DNA from: Treponema sp.
GTDB taxonomy: Bacteria; Spirochaetota; Spirochaetia; Treponematales; Treponemataceae
Length of the DNA: 64,000 nt
Assembly (NCBI GenBank): GCA_017449285.1
Contig: JAFSJX010000105.1
Coordinates: 112,687 to 176,686, forward strand
Direction: 5' to 3'
Below, in pieces: positions 1,902-8,506 of the stretch. The notes beneath the pieces are model-generated. The model saw only the letters and a list, made by a program, of their open reading frames with translations. It ran no database searches and had not been told where the DNA came from. Positions within the stretch are counted from its first letter, which is position 1, and the number at the start of each line of letters is the position of its first letter. The position numbers were made by a program, and so were the translations under genes.

Positions 1902-2291
1902 TTAAACCTCGCGCACAGGAAGCGCAAGAATATTGTTTTTGCGCAAAGCGTCCGCCTGCGCATCCGTCAGGGCATTGCCGCCCATATTCACAAGGTTTCT
2001 GTTCACCTTGCCGCTGATGCACACGCGCACCGCATAGTCGCCCGCCTCGGTAATCGGGGCTTCCACGCGGTCAACAAGAATAAACAGCGCACCGTCCGTG
2101 TCCGCCGCCACCTCGTACTTTCCGTCACCGTTTCTGGTGAGCACCGTGCCATCCGTAATGTTGATGGTCTGACCGCTTCCAGCGGCCGCCACCGTCAAAA
2201 CGCCCGTCTCAAACTCGTTGTCGCCAAAGAGCAATGTCTTAGGCTCAATCGAGCGCGTCTCATGGATTCCGTTAATCGTCCCCATCGTCAT
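1902..2291 (-). CDS. Head decoration protein, lambda gpD-like
   Basis: 129 aa, between protease/scaffold and capsid as in lambda. Sequence is gpD-like (GVLTVAAAGSGQTI..., AVRVCISGKVN). Confidence 0.7.
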   Translation of the reverse strand: MTMGTINGIHETRSIEPKTLLFGDNEFETGVLTVAAAGSGQTINITDGTVLTRNGDGKYEVAADTDGALFILVDRVEAPITEAGDYAVRVCISGKVNRNLVNMGGNALTDAQADALRKNNILALPVREV

Positions 2292-2643
2292 ATCCTCCCG
2301 ACTTCAATGCACTGTCAAACGCCGCGCACATCGCCTTACTGTCCGCATTCTTGTCATTCTTCGGCGGGTTCACGTCAGGAATGCTCTTCTCATCCTCAGC
2401 CTGTGCCGCCAAAGCCTGCGCAGCCTTCCCCTTGTCAAAGAAAGCGTCCACAACCTTTTCGTCTGCGGGGTCAGCCCCGTTTCTGATACATTCAAGAGCA
2501 TAGTCAGTGCATCCCGCTCGCTCGCCCATAGCCAAAAGGCGATTGACACGGGCCTGCTCTTTGCACACCCCAGCCTTTTCGCCGTCTGCCATCACCGTGT
2601 TAAACACATCGGGATGAGCCTTTTTAAGTTCCTCAGCTGTCAT
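2272..2643 (-). CDS. Putative nested scaffold protein (Nu3-like) from an internal in-frame start
   Basis: In-frame ATG at 2643 (MTAEELKK) is preceded by AAGGGGG with a 5-nt spacer and lies just downstream of the hairpin at 2692..2709. Lambda C/Nu3 has the same nested arrangement. Confidence 0.4.
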   Translation of the reverse strand: MTAEELKKAHPDVFNTVMADGEKAGVCKEQARVNRLLAMGERAGCTDYALECIRNGADPADEKVVDAFFDKGKAAQALAAQAEDEKSIPDVNPPKNDKNADSKAMCAAFDSALKSGGYDDGDD

Positions 2644-3444
2644 CGCAGCCCCCTTTTCGTTTCCGGCACCCGCCGTTTTTTCCGTATTGCTACTACTCAC
2701 GAGAGTAGTGAATCCCCAAGCCTTGGCCGCCGCCGCATAATCACGATGCGGCGCATCCTTTCCCCGCTTTGCCTGAACAGACCGCATCAACTCGCACGAC
2801 TTGTCAAAAGTCGCCTTCGCACTATGAATGCAGCAATCCTTTCCCGCATTGACGACAAGCCCCTTGTCAATGTCCGCCTGATATTCCGGCTGAATGATTG
2901 CGTCAGCAAAACCGCCGTCAAGGATTTCATTTCCCCAAAGCCATGTCTCCGCGTCCATCATCGCGCGGATCTCGACATCGCTTTTGCCCGTCTTGCGCAC
3001 ATACACCGCGCGAAGCATGTCATCAACCTTGCCGAACCACTCCGCACCCTCGCGCATATCGTTCGCGTTCCCAACGACAATCCCCCAAGCGTTGTGAATC
3101 ATGTAAACGGAATTATCCTCGGCAACAACAACATTCTTCTCAGGGTTCACGCTGTTCGCCGCAAGCGCAATCACGCTCGCCATGCTCGCAGCCATCCCCT
3201 GAATATACGTATTGATTGTCACATCCGGATGATTCCGCGCGAAGTCGCGGATAAGATTGAAAATCGTGATTCCCTCAAACACATCACCGCCGGGAGAATC
3301 AATCACAATCCGCACCTCAGATTCGCCCGCAGGAAAAGCGGCAAGCACCTCGCGTACATGACGCGCCGAAATCTCCTCCGACACGCCCGTGTACTGCTCC
3401 CACCAGTCCTCGCCGATAACCTTGTCTATCAACAATTCATACAT
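2272..3444 (-). CDS. ClpP/S49-type prohead protease fused in frame to a scaffold-like C-terminal domain (lambda gpC-like)
   Basis: Motifs IDSPGGDV and GMAASMAS are typical of ClpP/SppA-type phage proteases. I prefer the start MYELLIDK at 3444, which lies 7 nt after a TAAAAA box, over the track start at 3477. Confidence 0.8.
   Translation of the reverse strand: MYELLIDKVIGEDWWEQYTGVSEEISARHVREVLAAFPAGESEVRIVIDSPGGDVFEGITIFNLIRDFARNHPDVTINTYIQGMAASMASVIALAANSVNPEKNVVVAEDNSVYMIHNAWGIVVGNANDMREGAEWFGKVDDMLRAVYVRKTGKSDVEIRAMMDAETWLWGNEILDGGFADAIIQPEYQADIDKGLVVNAGKDCCIHSAKATFDKSCELMRSVQAKRGKDAPHRDYAAAAKAWGFTTLVSSSNTEKTAGAGNEKGAAMTAEELKKAHPDVFNTVMADGEKAGVCKEQARVNRLLAMGERAGCTDYALECIRNGADPADEKVVDAFFDKGKAAQALAAQAEDEKSIPDVNPPKNDKNADSKAMCAAFDSALKSGGYDDGDD
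2692..2709. repeat. ACTACT-N6-AGTAGT hairpin, copy inside the protease/scaffold ORF
   Basis: actact cacgag agtagt, at the junction of the protease and scaffold domains. Confidence 0.8.
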
Positions 3445-3527
3445 AAATCTATTTTTAACGAGAAAAAATAAAAACACTATTCCCTAAACACTTTTTTTTA
3501 ATTTTTTTTATCTCCACGCAAAAAAAA

Positions 3528-3553
3528 GCCGACTACTCTCAAAAGTAGTCGGC
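3528..3553 (-). terminator. Rho-independent terminator; member of the ACTACT/AGTAGT hairpin family
   Basis: gccgactact ctcaaa agtagtcggc. On the minus strand it is followed by a run of 8 T (3520-3527), ending the 3560..4055 peptide operon. Confidence 0.75.
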
Positions 3554-3559
3554 CAAATC

Positions 3560-3793
3560 CTACGCCATGCCCTCCAAGCCCAGCACCTGCTCCAGCTCGC
3601 CCGCCCAGTTTTCCACCTCAACGCTTGCCGCAAGCGCCGTCCCTGGCCGCAGATGGATTTCTCTCTTGTCCATGTTCCTGAGCAAATCCGCGAACATGCG
3701 CATCGTGTTCAGCTTGTCAATCACCAGCGTTTCCACGTCATCAGGCAAATACACCTCTTCATGCTCCAGCCTTATTGCCGCAACAGAACCCAT
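3560..3793 (-). CDS. Hypothetical 77-aa soluble protein, third gene of cassette 1 peptide operon
   Basis: ATG at 3793 lies 7 nt after the stop of the 25-aa peptide gene. The track start at 3799 is a GTG two codons upstream. Confidence 0.45.
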   Translation of the reverse strand: MGSVAAIRLEHEEVYLPDDVETLVIDKLNTMRMFADLLRNMDKREIHLRPGTALAASVEVENWAGELEQVLGLEGMA

Positions 3794-3799
3794 ACACAC

Positions 3800-3877
3800 C
3801 TACCTTAGCACGTTTATCACGATAAACGCGCCGAACACCACGACAAACGCCGCAAGATAAAAATACGTCCTTTTCAT
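3800..3877 (-). CDS. Mini membrane peptide B1, 25 aa (MKRTYFYLAAFVVVFGAFIVINVLR)
   Basis: Read manually; too short for the ORF track. SD-like AAGGGG lies upstream of the ATG, and the peptide has one hydrophobic helix. Position matches B2 and B3. Confidence 0.4.
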   Translation of the reverse strand: MKRTYFYLAAFVVVFGAFIVINVLR

Positions 3878-3916
3878 TTGACACCCCTTGTCAGTTTGAT
3901 TTATAATAAGCGCTAA

Positions 3917-3937
3917 GAGCGGTTGTTCAGACCGCCC
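3917..3937. repeat. Conserved intercistronic hairpin between A and B peptide genes (copy 1)
   Basis: gagcggt tgttcag accgccc. The 24-mer gagcggttgttcagaccgccctt is identical at 5268-5291. Confidence 0.8.
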
Positions 3938-3950
3938 TTGCGGATTGGTA

Positions 3951-4055
3951 CTACCTAAGCACCAGACTGAGTATTGTTGCGATTGCGGTTATCAGGGTTG
4001 CAATCGCAACAATCCAATCCGTTACCTTCGGCTTGTCTTCATTTTCCCTTTCCAT
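3951..4055 (-). CDS. Mini membrane peptide A1, 34 aa (MERENEDKPKVTDWIVAIATLITAIATILSLVLR)
   Basis: Read manually. AAGGAGG lies 8 nt upstream of the ATG. Charged N-terminus followed by one C-terminal TM helix. Confidence 0.45.
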   Translation of the reverse strand: MERENEDKPKVTDWIVAIATLITAIATILSLVLR

Positions 4056-4098
4056 GTCATTCACCTCCTTATCAAGGCTCTTTGCTCTTGATGTTTAC

Positions 4099-4127
4099 AA
4101 TATACACTATTTTGTTTCTCTTGTCAA
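4099..4127 (-). promoter_or_regulatory. Sigma70-type promoter for cassette 1 peptide operon
   Basis: Minus strand reads TTGACA, 17 nt, TATATT. The downstream 5'UTR carries the conserved 31-mer that includes the SD. Confidence 0.5.
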
Positions 4128-4169
4128 TAATCAAAAGAAACTTTTTTGTTATTTTTGCACATTTTTGCA

Positions 4170-4198
4170 TTGTCTTTGTATCTGTTTTTGTGTATAAT
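4170..4198 (+). promoter_or_regulatory. Promoter of HTH1, predicted to give a leaderless mRNA
   Basis: TTGTCT, 17 nt, TGTGTATAAT. The ATG at 4205 is 6 nt after the -10 box and there is no SD. Confidence 0.5.
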
Positions 4199-4204
4199 CA
4201 GCGT

Positions 4205-4423
4205 ATGAACAGTACAGAATACATCAGACTTTGCCTAGTCAAGCGGAACAACATGTCAGTTGCAGAGCTTGCCGAAAAAACAGGTCAGACACGGCAAAAC
4301 CTTTCCAACAAAATGCAGCGCAACGAATGGAAGCAGGCCGAACTTGAAAAAATCGCCGCCGCCTTGGATGCCGACCTCGACATCCGCTTCATCGACCACG
4401 CCACCGACGAGCCGATAATCTAG
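4205..4423 (+). CDS. Small Xre-type HTH protein, cassette 1 (72 aa)
   Basis: MSVAELAEKTGQTRQNLSNKMQRN is a helix-turn-helix of the Xre/Cro type. Paralogous to 4891..5106 and 5563..5787. Confidence 0.75.
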   Translation: MNSTEYIRLCLVKRNNMSVAELAEKTGQTRQNLSNKMQRNEWKQAELEKIAAALDADLDIRFIDHATDEPII

Positions 4424-4426
4424 CAT

Positions 4427-4456
4427 TTTCCCGCCGCCCAAAAGAGCGGCAGGAAA
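4427..4456. terminator. Bidirectional hairpin between HTH1 and cassette 2 peptides
   Basis: tttcccgccgc ccaaaaga gcggcaggaaa. The same element, with a perfect stem, recurs at 5110..5139. Confidence 0.6.
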
Positions 4457-4470
4457 GCGCTATGTATCCG

Positions 4471-4560
4471 TTACTGCTGCTTTCTGGAAAGAACCCGCAC
4501 CAAAATGCGGCATACAACCGCAATACCCAGACAAACCAGAATCGCAATTTTCAAAGCCAT
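4471..4560 (-). CDS. Mini membrane peptide B2, 29 aa (MALKIAILVCLGIAVVCRILVRVLSRKQQ)
   Basis: Read manually. TAAGGAGG lies 6 nt upstream of the ATG. TM helix followed by a basic tail. Confidence 0.45.
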   Translation of the reverse strand: MALKIAILVCLGIAVVCRILVRVLSRKQQ

Positions 4561-4652
4561 GTTGACCTCCTTAAAAAAATCAGTGTAGTATCTATGTAAA
4601 CCCCGCCCGTGGAGCAGTCCGAAGCGGGGGCAATTTCATTCAAGGTCAGCCG

Positions 4653-4742
4653 TTAGACGAACAGCAGAATGACCATCAGAATGAAGCTGGCAATCGTTAC
4701 GACGTCTGCAACGGTTGCCAGCACTTTTCTAAGCTTGCTCAC
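4653..4742 (-). CDS. Mini membrane peptide A2, 29 aa, GTG start (VSKLRKVLATVADVVTIASFILMVILLFV)
   Basis: Read manually. AGGAGG lies upstream, and the GTG sits inside a 2-codon ATG-AAG-TGA mini-ORF. C-terminal TM helix. Confidence 0.35.
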   Translation of the reverse strand: MSKLRKVLATVADVVTIASFILMVILLFV

Positions 4743-4854
4743 TTCATATTCACCTCCTTATCAAGGCTCTTTGCTCTTGACAGTTATAATAATAACGAAA
4801 TAGTTATAATTTGTCAATAAAAATATTTCCTTTTTCGTTATTATTTTCATTAAA

Positions 4855-4883
4855 TTGACATTTTTTTTTATTTATAATAATAT
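4855..4883 (+). promoter_or_regulatory. Promoter of HTH2, predicted leaderless
   Basis: TTGACA, 17 nt, TAATAT. The ATG at 4891 is 7 nt downstream and there is no SD. Confidence 0.5.
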
Positions 4884-4890
4884 TTTTCAC

Positions 4891-5106
4891 ATGGATTTAG
4901 CAGAAAACATAAAAATTATTTGCATAAAACGCAAAATATCAATGACAGAACTCGCCGAAAAAACAGGTCAGAGTCAGCCAAATCTTGCAAACAAGTTGAA
5001 ACGCAATGATTTCAAAAACTCTGAACTTGAAAAAATCGCCGCCGCTCTGGACTCTCACCTAGAAATTAAATTTATCGACAACGCAACCAACCAACCGATA
5101 ATCTAG
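4891..5106 (+). CDS. Small Xre-type HTH protein, cassette 2 (71 aa)
   Basis: MTELAEKTGQSQPNLANKLKRN...ELEKIAAALDSHLEIKFIDNATNQPII; paralogue of HTH1 and HTH3. Confidence 0.75.
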   Translation: MDLAENIKIICIKRKISMTELAEKTGQSQPNLANKLKRNDFKNSELEKIAAALDSHLEIKFIDNATNQPII

Positions 5107-5109
5107 CAT

Positions 5110-5139
5110 TTTCCTGCCGCCCAAAAGAGCGGCAGGAAA
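5110..5139. terminator. Bidirectional hairpin after HTH2 (copy of 4427..4456)
   Basis: tttcctgccgc ccaaaaga gcggcaggaaa, a perfect 11-bp stem. Confidence 0.6.
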
Positions 5140-5142
5140 GCG

Positions 5143-5226
5143 CTACAACAGCACAGCCATAGCGACCATGCACGCGCCCATAACGCACAGGCACACCGCA
5201 ATCAAAATCTTTGTTTTCTTAGCCAT
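5143..5226 (-). CDS. Mini membrane peptide B3, 27 aa (MAKKTKILIAVCLCVMGACMVAMAVLL)
   Basis: Read manually. GGGGG SD-like sequence upstream; basic N-terminus plus TM helix. Confidence 0.4.
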   Translation of the reverse strand: MAKKTKILIAVCLCVMGACMVAMAVLL

Positions 5227-5267
5227 ATTGACCCCCATTGAAATAAAATCTATATTTTCCAGTAAAG

Positions 5268-5288
5268 GAGCGGTTGTTCAGACCGCCC
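5268..5288. repeat. Conserved intercistronic hairpin between A and B peptide genes (copy 2)
   Basis: Same sequence as 3917..3937, again between an A-type stop and a B-type start. Confidence 0.8.
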
Positions 5289-5296
5289 TTTACTGG

Positions 5297-5413
5297 TTAT
5301 TTAACCAGTGCTACAACCAGCCCTGCAACGCTTGCCGCTGTTCCGACCAGCGCAAGCAGCTTCCAGAACCAGTCTTCGGGAAGCTTGCAGGGCTTCTTTT
5401 TTTGCTCATCCAC
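5297..5413 (-). CDS. Mini membrane peptide A3, 38 aa, GTG start (VDEQKKKPCKLPEDWFWKLLALVGTAASVAGLVVALVK)
   Basis: Read manually. AAGGAGG lies upstream and the GTG overlaps a 3-codon mini-ORF, ATG AGT GGA TGA. N-terminus is homologous to A4 (DEQKKK vs NEQKKW). Confidence 0.4.
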   Translation of the reverse strand: MDEQKKKPCKLPEDWFWKLLALVGTAASVAGLVVALVK

Positions 5414-5562
5414 TCATAATCACCTCCTTACCAGTGCCGTTGCGCTCTTGATGTTTATATAATAAACCTTTTTACTTATTTCGTCAACAGTAAATATAAA
5501 CTTTTTTGCTTTTTTTTATACTTTTTGTTGCTAAAATCATCTTTTTTGTTTATTATAAAAAT

Positions 5563-5787
5563 ATGGCTATAGATATTTCAGAATACATCGATTTATGTTT
5601 GGTAAAAAGAGGCAAAATGTCTCATGCAGAACTTGCCCGACTTACAGAACAGTCGCCGCAAGTCATCTTTAAGAAATTCAAGAACGGGACATTTAAAATT
5701 TCCGAGCTGGAAAAAATCGCCGCCGCGCTCGACAGCCGCCTTGACATTCGTTTCCTCGACAACGCAACCGGCGAGCCGATAATTTGA
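5563..5787 (+). CDS. Small Xre-type HTH protein, cassette 3 (74 aa)
   Basis: MSHAELARLTEQSPQVIFKKFKNG...ELEKIAAALDSRLDIRFLDNATGEPII. The ATG directly follows an AT-rich -10-like box (tattataaaaat) with no SD. Confidence 0.7.
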   Translation: MAIDISEYIDLCLVKRGKMSHAELARLTEQSPQVIFKKFKNGTFKISELEKIAAALDSRLDIRFLDNATGEPII

Positions 5788-5818
5788 CCGCCGCAAAAAA
5801 AGGCAGTATCATAGCACC

Positions 5819-6265
5819 ATGACCTACGAAGAAGAACTAAATCTGTACAACTGGACAAAAGAAACCTGTGATTTTCTCGATGAGGAAAGGCTTTACCAGC
5901 AGCACAGCTTTGATGAATGGCTCTTGAAAATCTGCGCGGGGGTTTTCGGCGTGTCGTTCGCCTTTATCGAGAAACTCATTGACTTTTCGGTAGCCGTCTG
6001 GAAGCCGCTTCTTTCCGCGAGCTGGTTCTTGTTCGCGCTCTGCCTTGTCGCCGAAATCTTTAACTTTATGAACTCCGAAAAACTTTACCGCTTGGACATA
6101 ATCAGCCGACAGAATGATTACGACAATCAGGCTCACGGCAAGAATCTTCCCACTGATTTGGTAAGAAAAACGGCGTTCATTGGTAAGTACATGAATTATG
6201 TGTCATTTGTTTTGTTCTTGGCGGGAGTTATATGTTTGGTTTCATTCATAGCAAAAAATATATAG
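5819..6265 (+). CDS. Hypothetical 148-aa membrane protein (about 3 TM) co-oriented with HTH3
   Basis: Starts 31 nt after the HTH3 stop with no intervening terminator. Hydrophobic segments include GVFGVSFAFI, SWFLFALCLVAEIF and VSFVLFLAGVICLVSFI. I recognise no family. Confidence 0.55.
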   Translation: MTYEEELNLYNWTKETCDFLDEERLYQQHSFDEWLLKICAGVFGVSFAFIEKLIDFSVAVWKPLLSASWFLFALCLVAEIFNFMNSEKLYRLDIISRQNDYDNQAHGKNLPTDLVRKTAFIGKYMNYVSFVLFLAGVICLVSFIAKNI

Positions 6266-6326
6266 ACCCTAGGGATATTCCGCAAAACCCGCGCCCCATG
6301 CCCAATCCCCCGCCAACGCCGACACA

Positions 6327-6377
6327 GAAATAAAATTCATCGACAACGCAAAACAATCAGCCGATTATTTGAACTGA
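6327..6377 (+). pseudogene. 3'-terminal fragment of a cassette HTH gene
   Basis: Encodes EIKFIDNAKQSADYLN, matching the C-terminus LEIKFIDNATNQPII of HTH2. There is no upstream coding part. Confidence 0.5.
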
Positions 6378-6384
6378 ATGTTTT

Positions 6385-6426
6385 GCATGATTAAACATCA
6401 TCATTTTTTGATAACTTTGTCAAATA
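6385..6426 (-). repeat. Duplicate of the higB-like promoter plus start codon (copy of 7712..7753)
   Basis: gcatgattaaacatcatcattttttgataactttgtcaaata versus gcatgattaaacattatcattttttgataatattgtcaatat, about 90% identical. This copy drives only a 7-codon stub, MQNIQFK. Confidence 0.7.
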
Positions 6427-6460
6427 GAAATAACGGCCGCCATAAGCGACCGCTGTAATC

Positions 6461-6658
6461 TTAAATAATCATTATTGCAGGGGCTTTCCCGGAAGAAATC
6501 AATTTCAAGGCTGCTTGAATTCGTTTCTGTGAATCCTGATTCAGATTTTCAGATTCTTCCTTGTATTTTCTGTATTCTTGCAGAGCGTATCCCCATTTGA
6601 TGGCGTTTTCCCTGTCTCTGCGCCTCCGCTCCCATTCTTTAATGCGCTCCGTATCCAT
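6461..6658 (-). CDS. Hypothetical 65-aa highly charged protein (cassette 4)
   Basis: AAGGGAGGG lies 8 nt upstream of the ATG, and the gene follows the A4 peptide gene by 32 nt. Confidence 0.45.
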   Translation of the reverse strand: MDTERIKEWERRRRDRENAIKWGYALQEYRKYKEESENLNQDSQKRIQAALKLISSGKAPAIMII

Positions 6659-6690
6659 AATCTTCGCCCTCCCTTATTTTGCAAAAATTG

Positions 6691-6840
6691 TTATGAGCGT
6701 TGCCACCGTAAGAACGATAGACACTCCCTGCAAAGCGATAAACGCGAGGTAATGGCGGTCAAGGTTGTCTGAATCGCCGTAATCACTATTGCGACTAGTG
6801 CCAGCTTTTCAGCCCTTGACCATTTTTTTTGCTCATTCAC
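6691..6840 (-). CDS. Mini membrane peptide A4, 49 aa, GTG start (VNEQKKWSRAEKLALVAIVITAIQTTLTAI...)
   Basis: Read manually. AAGGGGG lies upstream and the GTG overlaps the mini-ORF ATG AGT GAA TGA, the same architecture as A3. Confidence 0.35.
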   Translation of the reverse strand: MNEQKKWSRAEKLALVAIVITAIQTTLTAITSRLSLCRECLSFLRWQRS

Positions 6841-6858
6841 TCATAGTCACCCCCTTAT

Positions 6859-7020
6859 GCAGAACTCTCAAGAAGAGCAGGACTTACACCGCAAAATTTA
6901 AATAGCAAATATACTGGCAACAAATTTAGCAACCATGATTTGGAAAAAATCGCCGAGGCTCTGAACTGTGAGCTTAAAATCTCTTTCATCGACAAAGACA
7001 CAAAAGAGCCGTTGATTTAA
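6859..7020 (+). pseudogene. 5'-truncated cassette HTH gene (cassette 4)
   Basis: Encodes AELSRRAGLTPQNLNSKYTGNKFSNHDLEKIAEALNCELKISFIDKDTKEPLI without the first ~17 codons or a start codon. An in-frame TAG lies 5 codons upstream, and the divergent promoter region is missing. Confidence 0.6.
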
Positions 7021-7036
7021 CTACTTACGTAAGTAG
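7021..7036. repeat. Hairpin of the ACTACT/AGTAGT family (variant CTACTT acgt AAGTAG)
   Basis: Perfect palindrome immediately after the stop of the truncated HTH gene. Confidence 0.7.
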
Positions 7037-7060
7037 TCGCCACAGCGAGTAGAAAAAAAA

Positions 7061-7086
7061 GGCAACTACTCACGTGAGTAGTTGCC
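7061..7086 (-). terminator. Rho-independent terminator of the HigBA-like operon; ACTACT/AGTAGT family
   Basis: ggcaactact cacgtg agtagttgcc. On the minus strand it is followed by T8 (7053-7060). Confidence 0.75.
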
Positions 7087-7108
7087 GCCTGTTCTTATTC
7101 CGTTTCTG

Positions 7109-7480
7109 CTACAAATACATAAAAAAATCAGCCGCATCGCAATCAAGTGCTTCTGCAAGTTTCTTTGCGTTCACCTTGCCGATTTTACGGCTTCCGTTTT
7201 CCATCTGCGAGATGTTGGGAACTGCGATTCCTGTCACCTCTGAAAGCTGCTTCTGCGTGATTCCCTTGTTTTCGCGCCGGATGGAAAGAACGTCAGCCGC
7301 CGTCATTTTTGATTCAATATCTTTCAGCACGGAACTTTCTTTTGAGCTTACAAAATCTTCGTCCGCATTTTCCTTAAACTGAATGTCGGGAAAAGTTCTT
7401 AAAAGGGCACTCTTCACCATTTCAAGCCCGTGCCCGTACATCGTAAAATCAATATGGTGCTTTCTCTCTACTACCTGCAT
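7109..7480 (-). CDS. Xre-HTH antitoxin (HigA-like)
   Basis: C-terminal HTH (GITQKQLSEVTGIAVPNISQMENG). GGAGGT lies 6 nt before the ATG at 7480. Overlaps the upstream toxin gene by 32 nt. Confidence 0.7.
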   Translation of the reverse strand: MQVVERKHHIDFTMYGHGLEMVKSALLRTFPDIQFKENADEDFVSSKESSVLKDIESKMTAADVLSIRRENKGITQKQLSEVTGIAVPNISQMENGSRKIGKVNAKKLAEALDCDAADFFMYL

Positions 7481-7715
7481 AAGTTACCTCCACAACGATA
7501 GAATTTTTCTCGCAATACCAGCAAGCTACCCAGTGATAGGAAAGATGACAATGATATTTGTCCTTTCCCAAATCGGAAAAGTTGCGCCAGCCTTTCTGTA
7601 TCGGGCCTTTTTTCTCCAGGTCCTTCACAAGCAGTGCGAACTTCTTTTGCTCCGCTTCGGGCATTTGCTCAACCTGCTTGTCAATCTTTCTTTTCCAAAT
7701 CACTTCGTACTGCAT
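7449..7715 (-). CDS. RelE/ParE-superfamily toxin (HigB-like; toxin gene first)
   Basis: 88 aa, small and basic, with RelE-like features (KKFALLVKDLEK, YHCHLSYHWVACW). Toxin precedes antitoxin, as in HigBA. Confidence 0.65.
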   Translation of the reverse strand: MQYEVIWKRKIDKQVEQMPEAEQKKFALLVKDLEKKGPIQKGWRNFSDLGKDKYHCHLSYHWVACWYCEKNSIVVEVTYAGSREKAPY

Positions 7716-7721
7716 GATTAA

Positions 7722-7750
7722 ACATTATCATTTTTTGATAATATTGTCAA
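7722..7750 (-). promoter_or_regulatory. Promoter of the HigB-like gene, predicted leaderless
   Basis: Minus strand reads TTGACA, 17 nt, TAATGT, 6 nt, ATG (7715). Confidence 0.55.
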
Positions 7751-7767
7751 TATCAAGGTATGTTCAC

Positions 7768-7797
7768 TTTACAAATTACCACTCATGCCCCCATAAT
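7768..7797 (+). promoter_or_regulatory. Promoter of 7804..8478, predicted leaderless
   Basis: TTTACA, 18 nt, CATAAT, 6 nt, ATG (7804). Confidence 0.45.
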
Positions 7798-7803
7798 GTC
7801 CGT

Positions 7804-8478
7804 ATGGCAACAAAAATAGTTCCGTCTTTTTCCGCAGCCCTCGCGGACACAAAAAAGAACATGCTCAAAGCAGGCATAGCCACCGTAAACATCGTGGCCG
7901 CAAACGCCCGCCGCTTCGCACAGGAAAACATAAAGCGCAACTTCACCACCCGCAACAGCTTCACCGTCAACTCCGTCCGCTTCACCCAGTGCCCCAAAAG
8001 CGCAAAACACTTCTCCGACATCAAAAGCGAGACAGGCATCACCGAAAAAGCCGGCTACATGGTCCGTCAGGAAACCGGCGGAATAAAGCGCAACCCCAAC
8101 GGCAAGAACCTGATTATCCCGAACACCCGCGCCCGCGGCGGCTCAAACAAAAACAAAGTTCAGAAACGCTATCATTACAATTCCATCATCAGAAATACAG
8201 TCAGCTGGACTTCACGCGGCGGAAGCCGAAAATCAAGACTTGTCGCAACCGCATTCATCGCATCAAGGCAGAAAAAATTTATTCGCATGAACAACGCATT
8301 TTTTCAAGTCACCAATTTCCGCAAAGGAAAAAGCAAAGTATCATTCAAACTCAAAGAAATCCTGAACTTGAAGTACCATACCACAGAAACCCCGCAGAAT
8401 CAGTGGCTTGAGCCGGCATCAGAAGCAGCCGCCAAAGATATGCAGTCAATTTTCAATTCACAGATGGACAAACTCTAA
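7804..8478 (+). CDS. Phage structural/morphogenesis-like protein, 224 aa (possibly HK97 gp10-like; uncertain)
   Basis: Basic protein with a phage neck/tail-completion character. It is on the opposite strand to all other late genes. The track start at 7558 was rejected in favour of MATKIVPS. Confidence 0.4.
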   Translation: MATKIVPSFSAALADTKKNMLKAGIATVNIVAANARRFAQENIKRNFTTRNSFTVNSVRFTQCPKSAKHFSDIKSETGITEKAGYMVRQETGGIKRNPNGKNLIIPNTRARGGSNKNKVQKRYHYNSIIRNTVSWTSRGGSRKSRLVATAFIASRQKKFIRMNNAFFQVTNFRKGKSKVSFKLKEILNLKYHTTETPQNQWLEPASEAAAKDMQSIFNSQMDKL

Positions 8479-8495
8479 CTACTCACGAAAGTAGT
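8478..8495. repeat. ACTACT-N6-AGTAGT hairpin
   Basis: actact cacgaa agtagt, overlapping the stop codon of 7804..8478 and ending 11 nt before the stop of hicB (8507..8509). Confidence 0.8.
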
Positions 8496-8506
8496 AGCCG
8501 CCAGTT

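Follow-up and report, generated by a model that had tools for sequence, protein, structure and literature searches.

A 64,000-nt stretch of Treponema sp. DNA (contig JAFSJX010000105.1, positions 112,687 to 176,686; hereafter the window) was found to carry three head-to-tail cassettes of ~685 bp at positions 3800-5787, within a variable prophage region that extends from a head-protease gene to a terminase gene. Each intact cassette consists of two minus-strand genes for very small membrane peptides, A and then B, and a divergent gene for an Xre/Cro-type helix-turn-helix (HTH) protein of 71-74 amino acids (aa). A repeat finder gave a start-to-start spacing of about 683 bp, and when aligned, the copies had a common arrangement in which B is followed by the hairpin, A, the intergenic region and the HTH gene. 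We tentatively regard the unit as a repressor-controlled, toxin-like and membrane-perturbing accessory (moron) cassette; by analogy, it would work most like a prophage type I toxin-antitoxin locus with an added protein regulator. All open reading frames (ORFs) listed in an earlier description of this DNA (the original prediction) were present at the positions given there. It had counted four copies, three of which proved to be intact, whereas the fourth is a relic with deleted promoters, a truncated HTH gene and a frameshifted A gene. The prophage array is therefore described here as three live cassettes plus debris.

The peptide genes of cassette 1 encode A1 (3951-4055, minus strand; 34 aa, MERENEDKPKVTDWIVAIATLITAIATILSLVLR), which has a charged N-terminus and a C-terminal transmembrane helix, and B1 (3800-3877, minus strand; 25 aa, MKRTYFYLAAFVVVFGAFIVINVLR), a single transmembrane helix. 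The corresponding minus-strand genes encode A2 (4653-4742; 29 aa, MSKLRKVLATVADVVTIASFILMVILLFV) and B2 (4471-4560; 29 aa, MALKIAILVCLGIAVVCRILVRVLSRKQQ) in cassette 2, and A3 (5297-5413; 38 aa, MDEQKKKPCKLPEDWFWKLLALVGTAASVAGLVVALVK) and B3 (5143-5226; 27 aa, MAKKTKILIAVCLCVMGACMVAMAVLL) in cassette 3. A Shine-Dalgarno (SD) sequence, AAGGAGG, is located 8 nt upstream of the A1 start codon. SDs of this type had been ascribed to all peptide genes; those of B1 (GGGGT) and B3 (GGGGG) turned out to be weaker. Both strands of the window were scanned for ORFs of 18-80 aa that are preceded at 3-12 nt by a strong SD and encode 17 consecutive residues with a mean hydropathy ≥1.8. The scan returned A1-A3, B1-B3 and the decayed A4, and nothing else.

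A search of related prophages yielded orthologous peptides and cassettes in many contigs. All peptides are retained in the near-identical metagenome prophages L009-L014; B1 is identical in L009, L010 and L013, and A1 occurs in L010 as a variant with an in-frame deletion of 6 nt. Orthologues were also identified for A1 (P0122, P0134, P0137-P0142), A2 (P0124, P0126-P0129, P0131), A3 (P0125, P0133), B2 (in L021, L022, L036 and L050) and B3 (MAKNTKIFIAVCLALMGICSFVAAMLV in L074/L075); in L074, the A3 orthologue is again divergent from a gene of the HTH_26 family. An A-peptide profile retrieved 22 peptide clusters, predicted by gene callers in public assemblies, which comprise all four A subtypes; identity of the A peptides to the A4 reference was 14-31%. 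Cognate pairs (A2 with B2, A3 with B3, A4 with B4) were found in independent contigs, and A and B always co-occurred as cognate types. With the orthologues in L021, L022, L036 and L050, the proposed frame of B2 had a ratio of nonsynonymous to synonymous polymorphism (pN/pS) of 0.24, as compared to ≥0.43 in all its other frames. The proposed A2 frame gave 0.46, a value with which one antisense frame tied. Variable columns at the first, second and third codon position numbered 8/4/18 for B2 and 18/10/24 for A2. Substitution in homologous loci is hence biased towards synonymous changes, as expected of conserved reading frames. The claim that these mini-ORFs exceed chance and fall into the size class of type I toxins was borne out, as they are the sole SD-plus-hydrophobic ORFs in 64 kb, are under selection and have orthologues in many assemblies. 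From these sequence comparisons we conclude that A and B should be regarded as real coding genes.

The divergent plus-strand genes encode HTH1 (4205-4423, 72 aa), HTH2 (4891-5106, 71 aa) and HTH3 (5563-5787, 74 aa). All three proteins matched Pfam family HTH_26 (PF13443) above its curated cut-off of 22 bits, with E-values of 3.7e-7 (30.7 bits), 2.6e-9 (37.7 bits) and 7.2e-5 (23.4 bits), respectively. Their pairwise identity is 58%. The common C-terminus ELEKIAAALD..L.I.F.D.AT..PII, already noticed in the original prediction, is almost invariant among the three paralogues and specific to this HTH subfamily. A protein identical to HTH1 (P0001), from a Treponema metagenome-assembled genome, carries the NCBI name 'helix-turn-helix transcriptional regulator [Treponema sp.]'. 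An AlphaFold2 model of HTH1 (mean predicted local distance difference test score 94) contained helices at residues 3-13, 19-26, 30-39 and 44-53, and the top Foldseek matches were SinR, C.BclI, C.Esp1396I, DdrO, ClgR, HipB and 434 Cro with TM-scores of 0.55-0.67. As the C-terminus is so conserved and the A peptides diverge so strongly, this segment more probably serves a function common to all three proteins, dimerisation for example, than the binding of A. By inspection, the predicted recognition helix differs between the cassettes.

A scan of the array region for sigma-70-like promoters revealed 23 sites as compared to 7.6 expected, and divergent promoter-like sites scored 9-11/12 in all three cassettes. 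The peptide promoter-like elements on the minus strand scored 10-11/12 and are TTGACA-17-TATATT in cassette 1 (4099-4127, 11/12), TTGACA-17-TATTAT in cassette 2 (4789-4817, 11/12) and TTGACG-17-TATTAT in cassette 3 (5459-5487). On the plus strand, TTGTCT-17-TATAAT (4170-4198), TTGACA-17-TAATAT (4855-4883) and TTGCTA-17-TATTAT (5528-5556) precede HTH1, HTH2 and HTH3, and their -10 boxes end 6, 7 and 6 nt before the respective ATG. The original prediction had pointed to a TATAAT-like box close to the ATG and to the lack of an SD; both were found for each gene, now as part of a complete element with a -35 box and a 17-nt spacer. Given this distance of 6-7 nt from -10 box to ATG and the missing SD, the HTH mRNAs are predicted to be leaderless. 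Most Treponema-type HTH homologues checked showed the same placement of the -10 box and no SD, and homologues in other, apparently Firmicutes-type loci have a normal leader with AAGGAGG. At the level of sequence, the prediction of leaderless HTH mRNAs is well supported by these comparisons.

The conserved non-coding pieces described previously, namely a 31-mer, the A-B hairpin and a hairpin behind the HTH gene, were all recovered by the repeat finder. The 31-mer is contained in repeat family D7 (4059-4102 and 4748-4791, 91% identity) and corresponds to the 5' untranslated region and SD of the A1 mRNA (4061-4091, minus strand) and of the A2 mRNA (4750-4780, minus strand). Candidate operators, which differ from cassette to cassette, are an imperfect palindrome overlapping the cassette-1 peptide -10 box (4097-4115), inverted-repeat arms of 13-16 bp flanking the cassette-2 peptide promoter (4788-4803 and 4830-4845, repeat I2) and an imperfect palindrome overlapping the cassette-3 peptide -10 box (5451-5469). 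Each HTH protein would bind such cassette-specific operators at its own promoter region. The hairpins located between the convergent genes HTH1 and B2 (4427-4456) and HTH2 and B3 (5110-5139) belong to repeat copies I1/I6 (4421-4462 and 5104-5145). They had been taken for terminators of the HTH genes; however, they were not called by a terminator scan, and a T-run is missing, in the case of 4427-4456 on either side, which rules them out as canonical terminators.

A feature absent from the original prediction is a plus-strand promoter-like element in all three A-B spacers of the window, antisense to the peptide genes. In cassette 1, it is a perfect TTGACA-18-TATAAT (3878-3907, 12/12) with the -35 box abutting the B1 start codon, and 0 of 300 shuffled sequences reached the observed score. 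Cassette 2 contains TTGACC-18-TAGTAT (4562-4591), for which orthologous loci keep TTGACC-17-TAGAAT, and the promoter scan located TTGACC-17-TATATT in cassette 3 (5228-5256). The -35 box overlaps the stretch from the B SD to the B start codon in the window cassettes. Fifteen diverged cassettes from the window and from other spirochaete-looking prophage contigs were then compared. Their best antisense match reached a mean of 10.2/12, as compared to 7.0 for the sense strand and 7.0 for composition-matched shuffles, and in 14/15 cassettes the -35 box occupied one of two fixed registers at the B translation start region. Among cassette-2 orthologues, the stretch with this element is better conserved than coding sequence.

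Transcription from the antisense element is predicted to begin a few bases ahead of the GC-rich hairpin; the hairpin itself is located behind the stop codon of A. The A1-B1 hairpin (3917-3937, fold energy -20.8 kcal/mol) shares its core GCGGT...ACCGC with cassette 3, and the respective 23-mers (3917-3939 and 5268-5290, repeat family D12) are 100% identical; the A3-B3 hairpin extends from 5258 to 5295 around the core 5268-5288 (-25.3 kcal/mol). The A2-B2 hairpin (4601-4629, CCCCGC...GCGGGG) has a stem that covaries among orthologues, with two independent C-G to T-A double changes in different lineages. At several loci the spacer hairpin has a T-run behind it when read in the sense direction; hence, it may, in addition, reduce transcription that continues from A into B. 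A clear 3' end of the predicted antisense RNA was not found, apart from a terminator-like site (5378-5398) in cassette 3. The conserved promoter-like element makes a type I toxin-antitoxin-like layer plausible, and an antisense RNA is accordingly predicted, from sequence, for the spirochaete cassettes.

Comparison with relatives indicated that the parts of the cassette can be exchanged. In L022, peptides of the A2/B2 type are joined to a regulator of the HTH1 type (83% identity), and by eye the intergenic region resembles that of window cassette 1, not that of cassette 2. The regulator gene, which moves together with its intergenic region as one regulatory unit, and the peptide unit thus appear as separate modules, and the array as a mosaic. 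The array had been attributed to the duplication of a functional unit; the functional repeated unit stands, while simple duplication and divergence has to be abandoned in view of the shuffling seen in L022. Peptide pairs were also found without this HTH, usually followed in that case by a small ribbon-helix-helix (RHH) protein. The second pair of L022 heads an operon which continues with a 72-aa RHH gene (weak NikA-like match) and a 96-aa ORF; in L071/L072, four peptides in a row precede an RHH gene (L071, 2730-3279); and L074, L075 and L079 contain several A-B(-RHH) units and one A3/B3 pair divergent from an HTH_26 gene. In L079 (2472-4430), like L071 apparently a prophage contig of spirochaete type, four to five successive peptide pairs were counted, and behind several of these an RHH gene with weak likeness to NikA is present. 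Furthermore, anti-restriction and methylase genes occupy the accessory region of the relatives alongside toxin-antitoxin pairs. At L001 3005-4216 and at ~4007-5219 of L015-L020, an HTH gene of the window family (~61-63% identity; predicted to be leaderless in L001) is divergent from an ArdC-type anti-restriction gene, and behind it come a HicAB pair and a gene for a DNA methylase.

Modules of a similar build were observed outside the spirochaetes. In L044-L046, an HTH protein 61-64% identical to the window family is encoded divergently from a 37-aa peptide of PHROG 38429 (E 3.2e-11 for the L044 type), and in L044 this peptide gene is followed by a 27-aa membrane-peptide ORF. Peptides of PHROG 38429 are encoded by Dorea phage DO134P1 and, among C. 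difficile phages, by phiMMP01, phiCD24-1 and phiCDKH01. DO134P1 and phiMMP01 show the order peptide, hairpin, second hydrophobic peptide, small HTH. A profile search for this peptide family returned at least 594 clusters at the 90% identity level, all labelled hypothetical. A set of 80 IMG/VR loci from Firmicutes was reduced to 27 non-redundant variants. A, the hairpin and a membrane peptide B of 26-44 aa were present in 27/27, and in most variants the next gene encodes a protein of 58-72 aa which, by sequence inspection, looks like an Xre-type, RHH-like or AbrB-like DNA binder. Pfam matches to regulators of other loci were HTH_59, HTH_3, a weak NikA-like RHH and a weak MazE-like match. By inspection, the Firmicutes operon promoters have good palindromes in the promoter spacer. 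In L080-L084 (~2430-2970), a promoter with the perfect palindrome ATATACGTACGTATAT is followed by a 37-aa peptide gene, a hairpin, and genes for a 30-aa membrane peptide and a 63-aa protein that is RHH-like by sequence; in L082, the latter was classed as RHH by inspection and had no Pfam match. In abundant gut Firmicutes prophages, the module is flanked by the small terminase gene on one side and by variable defence-like genes (TIR, DUF4747, DUF6731) on the other.

The PHROG 38429 modules thus share with the window cassettes the order of a 36-40-aa peptide with charged N-terminus and hydrophobic C-terminus, a hairpin, a membrane peptide and a DNA binder. They differ in that the regulator is usually co-directional and of another fold and that the antisense element is not enriched, and the family is one without known function. 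Homology of the window A peptides to PHROG 38429 was rejected, as there was no profile match and hhalign gave a probability of 2%. It is possible, although we regard it as doubtful, that all these loci represent an undescribed, widespread phage module in which an effector or toxin (A) and its membrane-embedded partner or antagonist (B), both membrane peptides of 25-40 residues and cognate to each other, are combined with an exchangeable small DNA-binding regulator (Xre HTH, RHH or AbrB-like), an antisense RNA being added in spirochaetes; such a module would be a three- or four-component toxin-antitoxin or abortive-infection system.

According to the toxin-like reading that we tentatively favour, two back-to-back sigma-70-type promoters would operate within the intergenic region of ~150 bp. 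One of them would give a leaderless mRNA for the 72-aa Xre/Cro-type dimeric DNA-binding protein, the other a short operon consisting of peptide A, a GC-rich hairpin and peptide B. A is predicted to have a charged cytoplasmic N-terminus and one C-terminal membrane helix, and B essentially to be one membrane helix. The HTH protein would bind to cassette-specific sites over the peptide promoter and repress both the peptides and itself. A and B would act jointly in the cytoplasmic membrane as a toxin-like perturbing pair, and they would be released when repression fails or is not yet set up, i.e. upon prophage loss, entry into a new cell or a trigger. In spirochaete cassettes a second brake at the RNA level is likely, with the convergent promoter in the A-B spacer driving an antisense RNA through the hairpin into A. 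What the sequences show are the genes with their conservation and selection, the promoter-like elements, the covarying hairpin and the recurrence of the modules in other phages; DNA binding, repression, the antisense RNA, membrane toxicity and the biological role of the cassette are inferred. The toxin-like character is suggested by size and polarity of the peptides, by the antisense geometry, by the tandem diverging copies and by the neighbouring toxin-antitoxin pairs (HicAB, HigBA-like). It is also suggested by the pattern of decay in cassette 4 and in L049, in which a disrupted A gene lies next to an HTH that retains a full-length match, and by the exchange of regulators, which is reminiscent of antitoxin/regulator modules.

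Tandem diverging copies are typical of type I loci, and type I loci of B. subtilis prophages include txpA/RatA and bsrG/SR4. Such loci encode small (<60 aa) hydrophobic membrane peptides with their own ribosome-binding site, and the window peptides do likewise. The SPbeta locus yonT-yoyJ/SR6 has two small toxin genes with a common mRNA; the gene for the antitoxin RNA is situated in the space separating them, in convergent orientation relative to the first (PMC5848175). The window cassettes resemble this locus in their prophage location, small hydrophobic peptides, strong SDs and two peptide genes per mRNA; furthermore, a convergent sigma-A/sigma-70-type promoter, in the window a promoter-like element, is located between the two genes and would give an RNA reaching across the 3' end of the first. 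Unlike SR6, which overlaps the ribosome-binding site of the second gene, the window RNA, a predicted one, would start upstream of the B ribosome-binding site. YonT has 58 aa (PMC5848175), as compared to 25-38 aa for the window peptides. Moreover, the window cassettes carry a dedicated protein regulator, type I loci being without one, and similarity in sequence to known toxins or antitoxin RNAs is absent.

The regulator shares its fold with 434 Cro, the DNA-binding domain of SinR, HipB, C.BclI and C.Esp1396I; it is of similar size and, as predicted here, is likewise encoded next to a divergent promoter that its product regulates. Leaderless mRNAs are known for lambda cI and for some controller proteins. 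Unlike the loci of these small Xre/Cro repressors, the cassette has no adjacent restriction-modification gene, kinase toxin or phage immunity region. A role as restriction-modification controller was rejected, as the likeness is confined to the fold and the cassette contains no restriction or methylase gene. The original prediction had compared the layout with a cI/PRM-like switch; the leaderless mRNA is retained as a prediction, and the remainder of the comparison is analogy, the HTH protein having no C-terminal cleavage or oligomerisation domain. A lambda-type cI switch was rejected because the 72-aa protein consists of the HTH only and the divergent genes encode membrane peptides and not cro. 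A type II toxin-antitoxin system with an HTH antitoxin was rejected as well, since the HTH gene is divergent and the C-terminal extension is the most conserved part of its product while the A peptides vary.

Several results weigh against a toxin-like cassette. The peptides gave no significant match to toxin, holin or defence families in Pfam, NCBIfam, PADLOC and PHROG, and a scan of 3300-7900 against Rfam gave none at E-values up to 1. The unit thus cannot be assigned to a described family, as the original prediction had stated. In particular, no Pfam or NCBIfam match to the type I toxins Hok, Fst, Ldr, TisB, Ibs, BsrG or TxpA was obtained at E-values up to 10, and matches of the cassette proteins to PADLOC defence models were at noise level. 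HTH homologues with 60-63% identity in related Treponema prophages are divergent from an ArdC-type anti-restriction gene, and those of C. difficile from soluble ORFs of 140 and 66 aa. The HTH therefore looks like a general accessory-gene regulator in this phage group, and because it accompanies unrelated cargo its presence says little about toxicity. In L076, an A1-type peptide gene directly follows the large terminase gene in the same orientation with no adjacent regulator, a position at which a strongly toxic product would not be expected. Clear operator palindromes were sought in the window and not found; those present are imperfect and lie in AT-rich DNA, where such repeats are weak evidence. 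The window spacer hairpins are poor terminators. Finally, the antisense element was not enriched in the 27 Firmicutes modules (mean 7.85 as compared to 7.56 for the sense strand, computed by hand from per-locus values), and the idea that it is a universal feature was rejected on these grounds.

A position of the C. difficile HTH homologues beside known type I toxins was considered and rejected, their neighbours being the soluble ORFs just mentioned. The polarity of the published C. difficile toxins is also reversed, their N-terminus being hydrophobic and their tail rich in lysine (PMC7699646). A blastn search of the region against phage records yielded one AT-rich 119-nt match in a Leptospira phage, which is uninformative; tblastn against phages gave one unannotated match for HTH1 and none for A3- and A4-type peptides. 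Such cassettes were not described in the literature searched.

The ArdC arrangement and the L076 peptide would suit non-toxic membrane effectors, since anti-restriction is a function needed at entry and the L076 peptide has no dedicated regulator. Such effectors would be made in a burst at entry, ahead of the accumulation of repressor, or at a low level in the lysogen, where they could block superinfection or modulate a host membrane protein or defence, and the HTH protein would be a generic timer. The location of the cassettes in an accessory region with methylase genes and toxin-antitoxin pairs, and that of the Firmicutes analogue beside variable defence-like genes, also fit this explanation. 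We nevertheless consider it somewhat unlikely. Known exclusion proteins are mostly larger and show no similarity to the peptides, and small-toxin loci are the more usual setting for the antisense element and for tandem copies that diverge.

In some toxin-antitoxin systems, such as omega-epsilon-zeta and paaR2-paaA2-parE2, a separate regulator makes up a third component. The cassettes are similar to these in having a separate small regulator and two co-inherited partners, and in that the regulator fold is exchangeable between loci; the partners in the window are two tiny membrane peptides, as opposed to a soluble enzyme and its inhibitor in systems of the omega-epsilon-zeta type. By the same logic, A could be a membrane toxin which B, embedded in the membrane, neutralises or tunes by helix-helix contact, with an exchangeable regulator on top. 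In favour of this division of labour, A and B types co-vary as cognate pairs, A, hairpin and B are kept in every one of the Firmicutes modules with mostly a small DNA-binder-like protein encoded next, and the common spirochaete-type form is A-B-RHH. B, however, is located after the hairpin and often has a weaker SD than A. Less B than A is therefore predicted, which is the wrong ratio for an antitoxin, and we regard this explanation as unlikely.

It is quite improbable that the peptide pairs are lysis-timing factors, i.e. very small holin/antiholin-like or membrane-depolarising proteins, even though the peptides all consist of one membrane helix flanked by charged ends, one B peptide had a faint PHROG holin match (E 0.44) and the A1-type peptide downstream of the large terminase gene in L076 is followed by a 56-aa hydrophobic protein, by eye with two helices. 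Known holins are well above the size of these peptides. No endolysin gene was found at 2500-8500 and no holin match was significant; furthermore, a single lysis clock is difficult to reconcile with three to four copies in one prophage that are regulated autonomously, each by a repressor of its own.

Exported cytolytic or bacteriocin-like leaderless multi-peptides are a very improbable explanation. They were considered because the best PDB sequence match of the HTH profile, a weak one (E 0.077), was CylR2, whose role at the enterococcal cytolysin operon the repressor would then take, and because a related peptide from another locus faintly matched a phenol-soluble modulin (E 0.052); aureocin A70, moreover, is encoded by a multi-peptide operon with a phage-repressor-like regulator. 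All these matches are far below significance, the peptides resemble membrane anchors and not cationic amphipathic peptides, and no transporter, immunity or modification gene is located nearby. An origin of the small ORFs by chance, within non-coding DNA that happens to be repeated, is hardly credible: they are indeed very short and unnamed in any family library, but the exclusive SD-plus-hydrophobic enrichment, the frame-specific purifying selection, the orthologues in many assemblies and the in-frame indel all speak against it.

Small membrane peptides are routinely missed in annotation, and those of the window form a conserved class under selection, invariably paired and wired to a small regulator. 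If they are toxins or exclusion factors, the cassettes would constitute a new and very compact type of addiction or defence module in gut phages. In that case, they would also be a candidate for the first type I-like system in spirochaetes, a literature search having found none for Treponema. As an analogous module is present in cultivable systems (phiMMP01, phiCDKH01, the Dorea phage), its function can be tested directly. The window, in turn, provides a natural set of three diverged pairs of repressor and candidate operator together with predicted leaderless genes, suited to studies of regulator specificity and leaderless translation in Treponema.

The fourth copy was analysed by alignment with the intact fourth cassette of L014, which encodes 32-aa A4 and B4 peptides and a 76-aa HTH protein. 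The A4 pseudogene (6691-6840, minus strand) matches in its N-terminal 30 residues the intact orthologues of 36-38 aa (P0121, P0123, P0130, P0135, P0136), which end in TAISVILMLG or similar; the 49-aa ORF of the window departs from them after TAIT and is thus frameshifted. The HTH4 remnant (6858-7020, plus strand) has the A4 SD region fused directly to mid-HTH coding sequence and is still open in its last 26 codons only (6940-7020). Since the sequence jumps from the A4 SD into the middle of the HTH gene, one deletion took both promoters and the first ~17 HTH codons. The spacer hairpin and B4 are lost as well. In their place an unrelated 65-aa, highly charged ORF with a good SD is found (6461-6658), which had no significant match in Pfam, NCBIfam, PADLOC and PHROG scans. 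An orphan 3'-end fragment of an HTH gene (..EIKFIDNAKQ.., ~6326-6372, plus strand) belongs to repeat family D6 and is 92% identical to 5061-5086.

The flanks of the array were as described previously. On one side lies a ClpP-type head-protease gene (2272-3477, PF00574) with, by synteny to L009, a capsid gene beyond it; on the other side, an HTH_3 antitoxin-like gene (7109-7480) and a gene for an 88-aa partner with a weak YafQ-type Pfam match (E 0.033) form a HigBA-like pair spanning 7109-7715. This pair is followed by a gene for a 224-aa protein, a HicAB pair and the large terminase gene. The 224-aa gene (7800-8478, plus strand) has a homologue in L022 whose PHROG match (E 1.4e-29) carries the annotation minor tail protein. 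Within the array, orf77 (3560-3793, minus strand) encodes a 77-aa acidic soluble protein and starts a few bases past the B1 stop codon, which makes cassette 1 a three-gene operon with orf77 as its third gene. Gene calls in the syntenic contigs L009, L010 and L013 also include it with 77 aa, and no match was obtained in Pfam (searched with a 79-aa form), PADLOC and PHROGs. A 148-aa ORF behind HTH3 (5819-6265), with several hydrophobic segments by eye, is kept in L009, L011 and L012 and had no family match in Pfam, NCBIfam, PADLOC and PHROG scans. The promoter-like element TTGACC-17-TATCAT (5784-5812) ends 6 nt before its ATG, and this gene is therefore also predicted to be leaderless.

The cassette-1 peptide operon ends with an intrinsic terminator (3527-3554, minus strand), an ACTACT...AGTAGT hairpin with a 12-pair stem followed by TTTTTTTG. 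ACTACT-N6-AGTAGT hairpins, some with T-runs, were observed at borders of accessory modules, in the window at 3527-3554, 7020-7039 and 7061-7086 (repeat families D9/D11) and in relatives near 4225 and 4940 of L001 and near 4906, 5934 and 5968 of L022. They may be shared terminators, possibly recombination junctions. Additionally, the 40-nt stretch directly upstream of the HigBA-like operon (7711-7750), presumably its promoter/operator region, is duplicated with 93% identity at 6384-6423 within the cassette debris, which looks like a trace of recombination between accessory modules.

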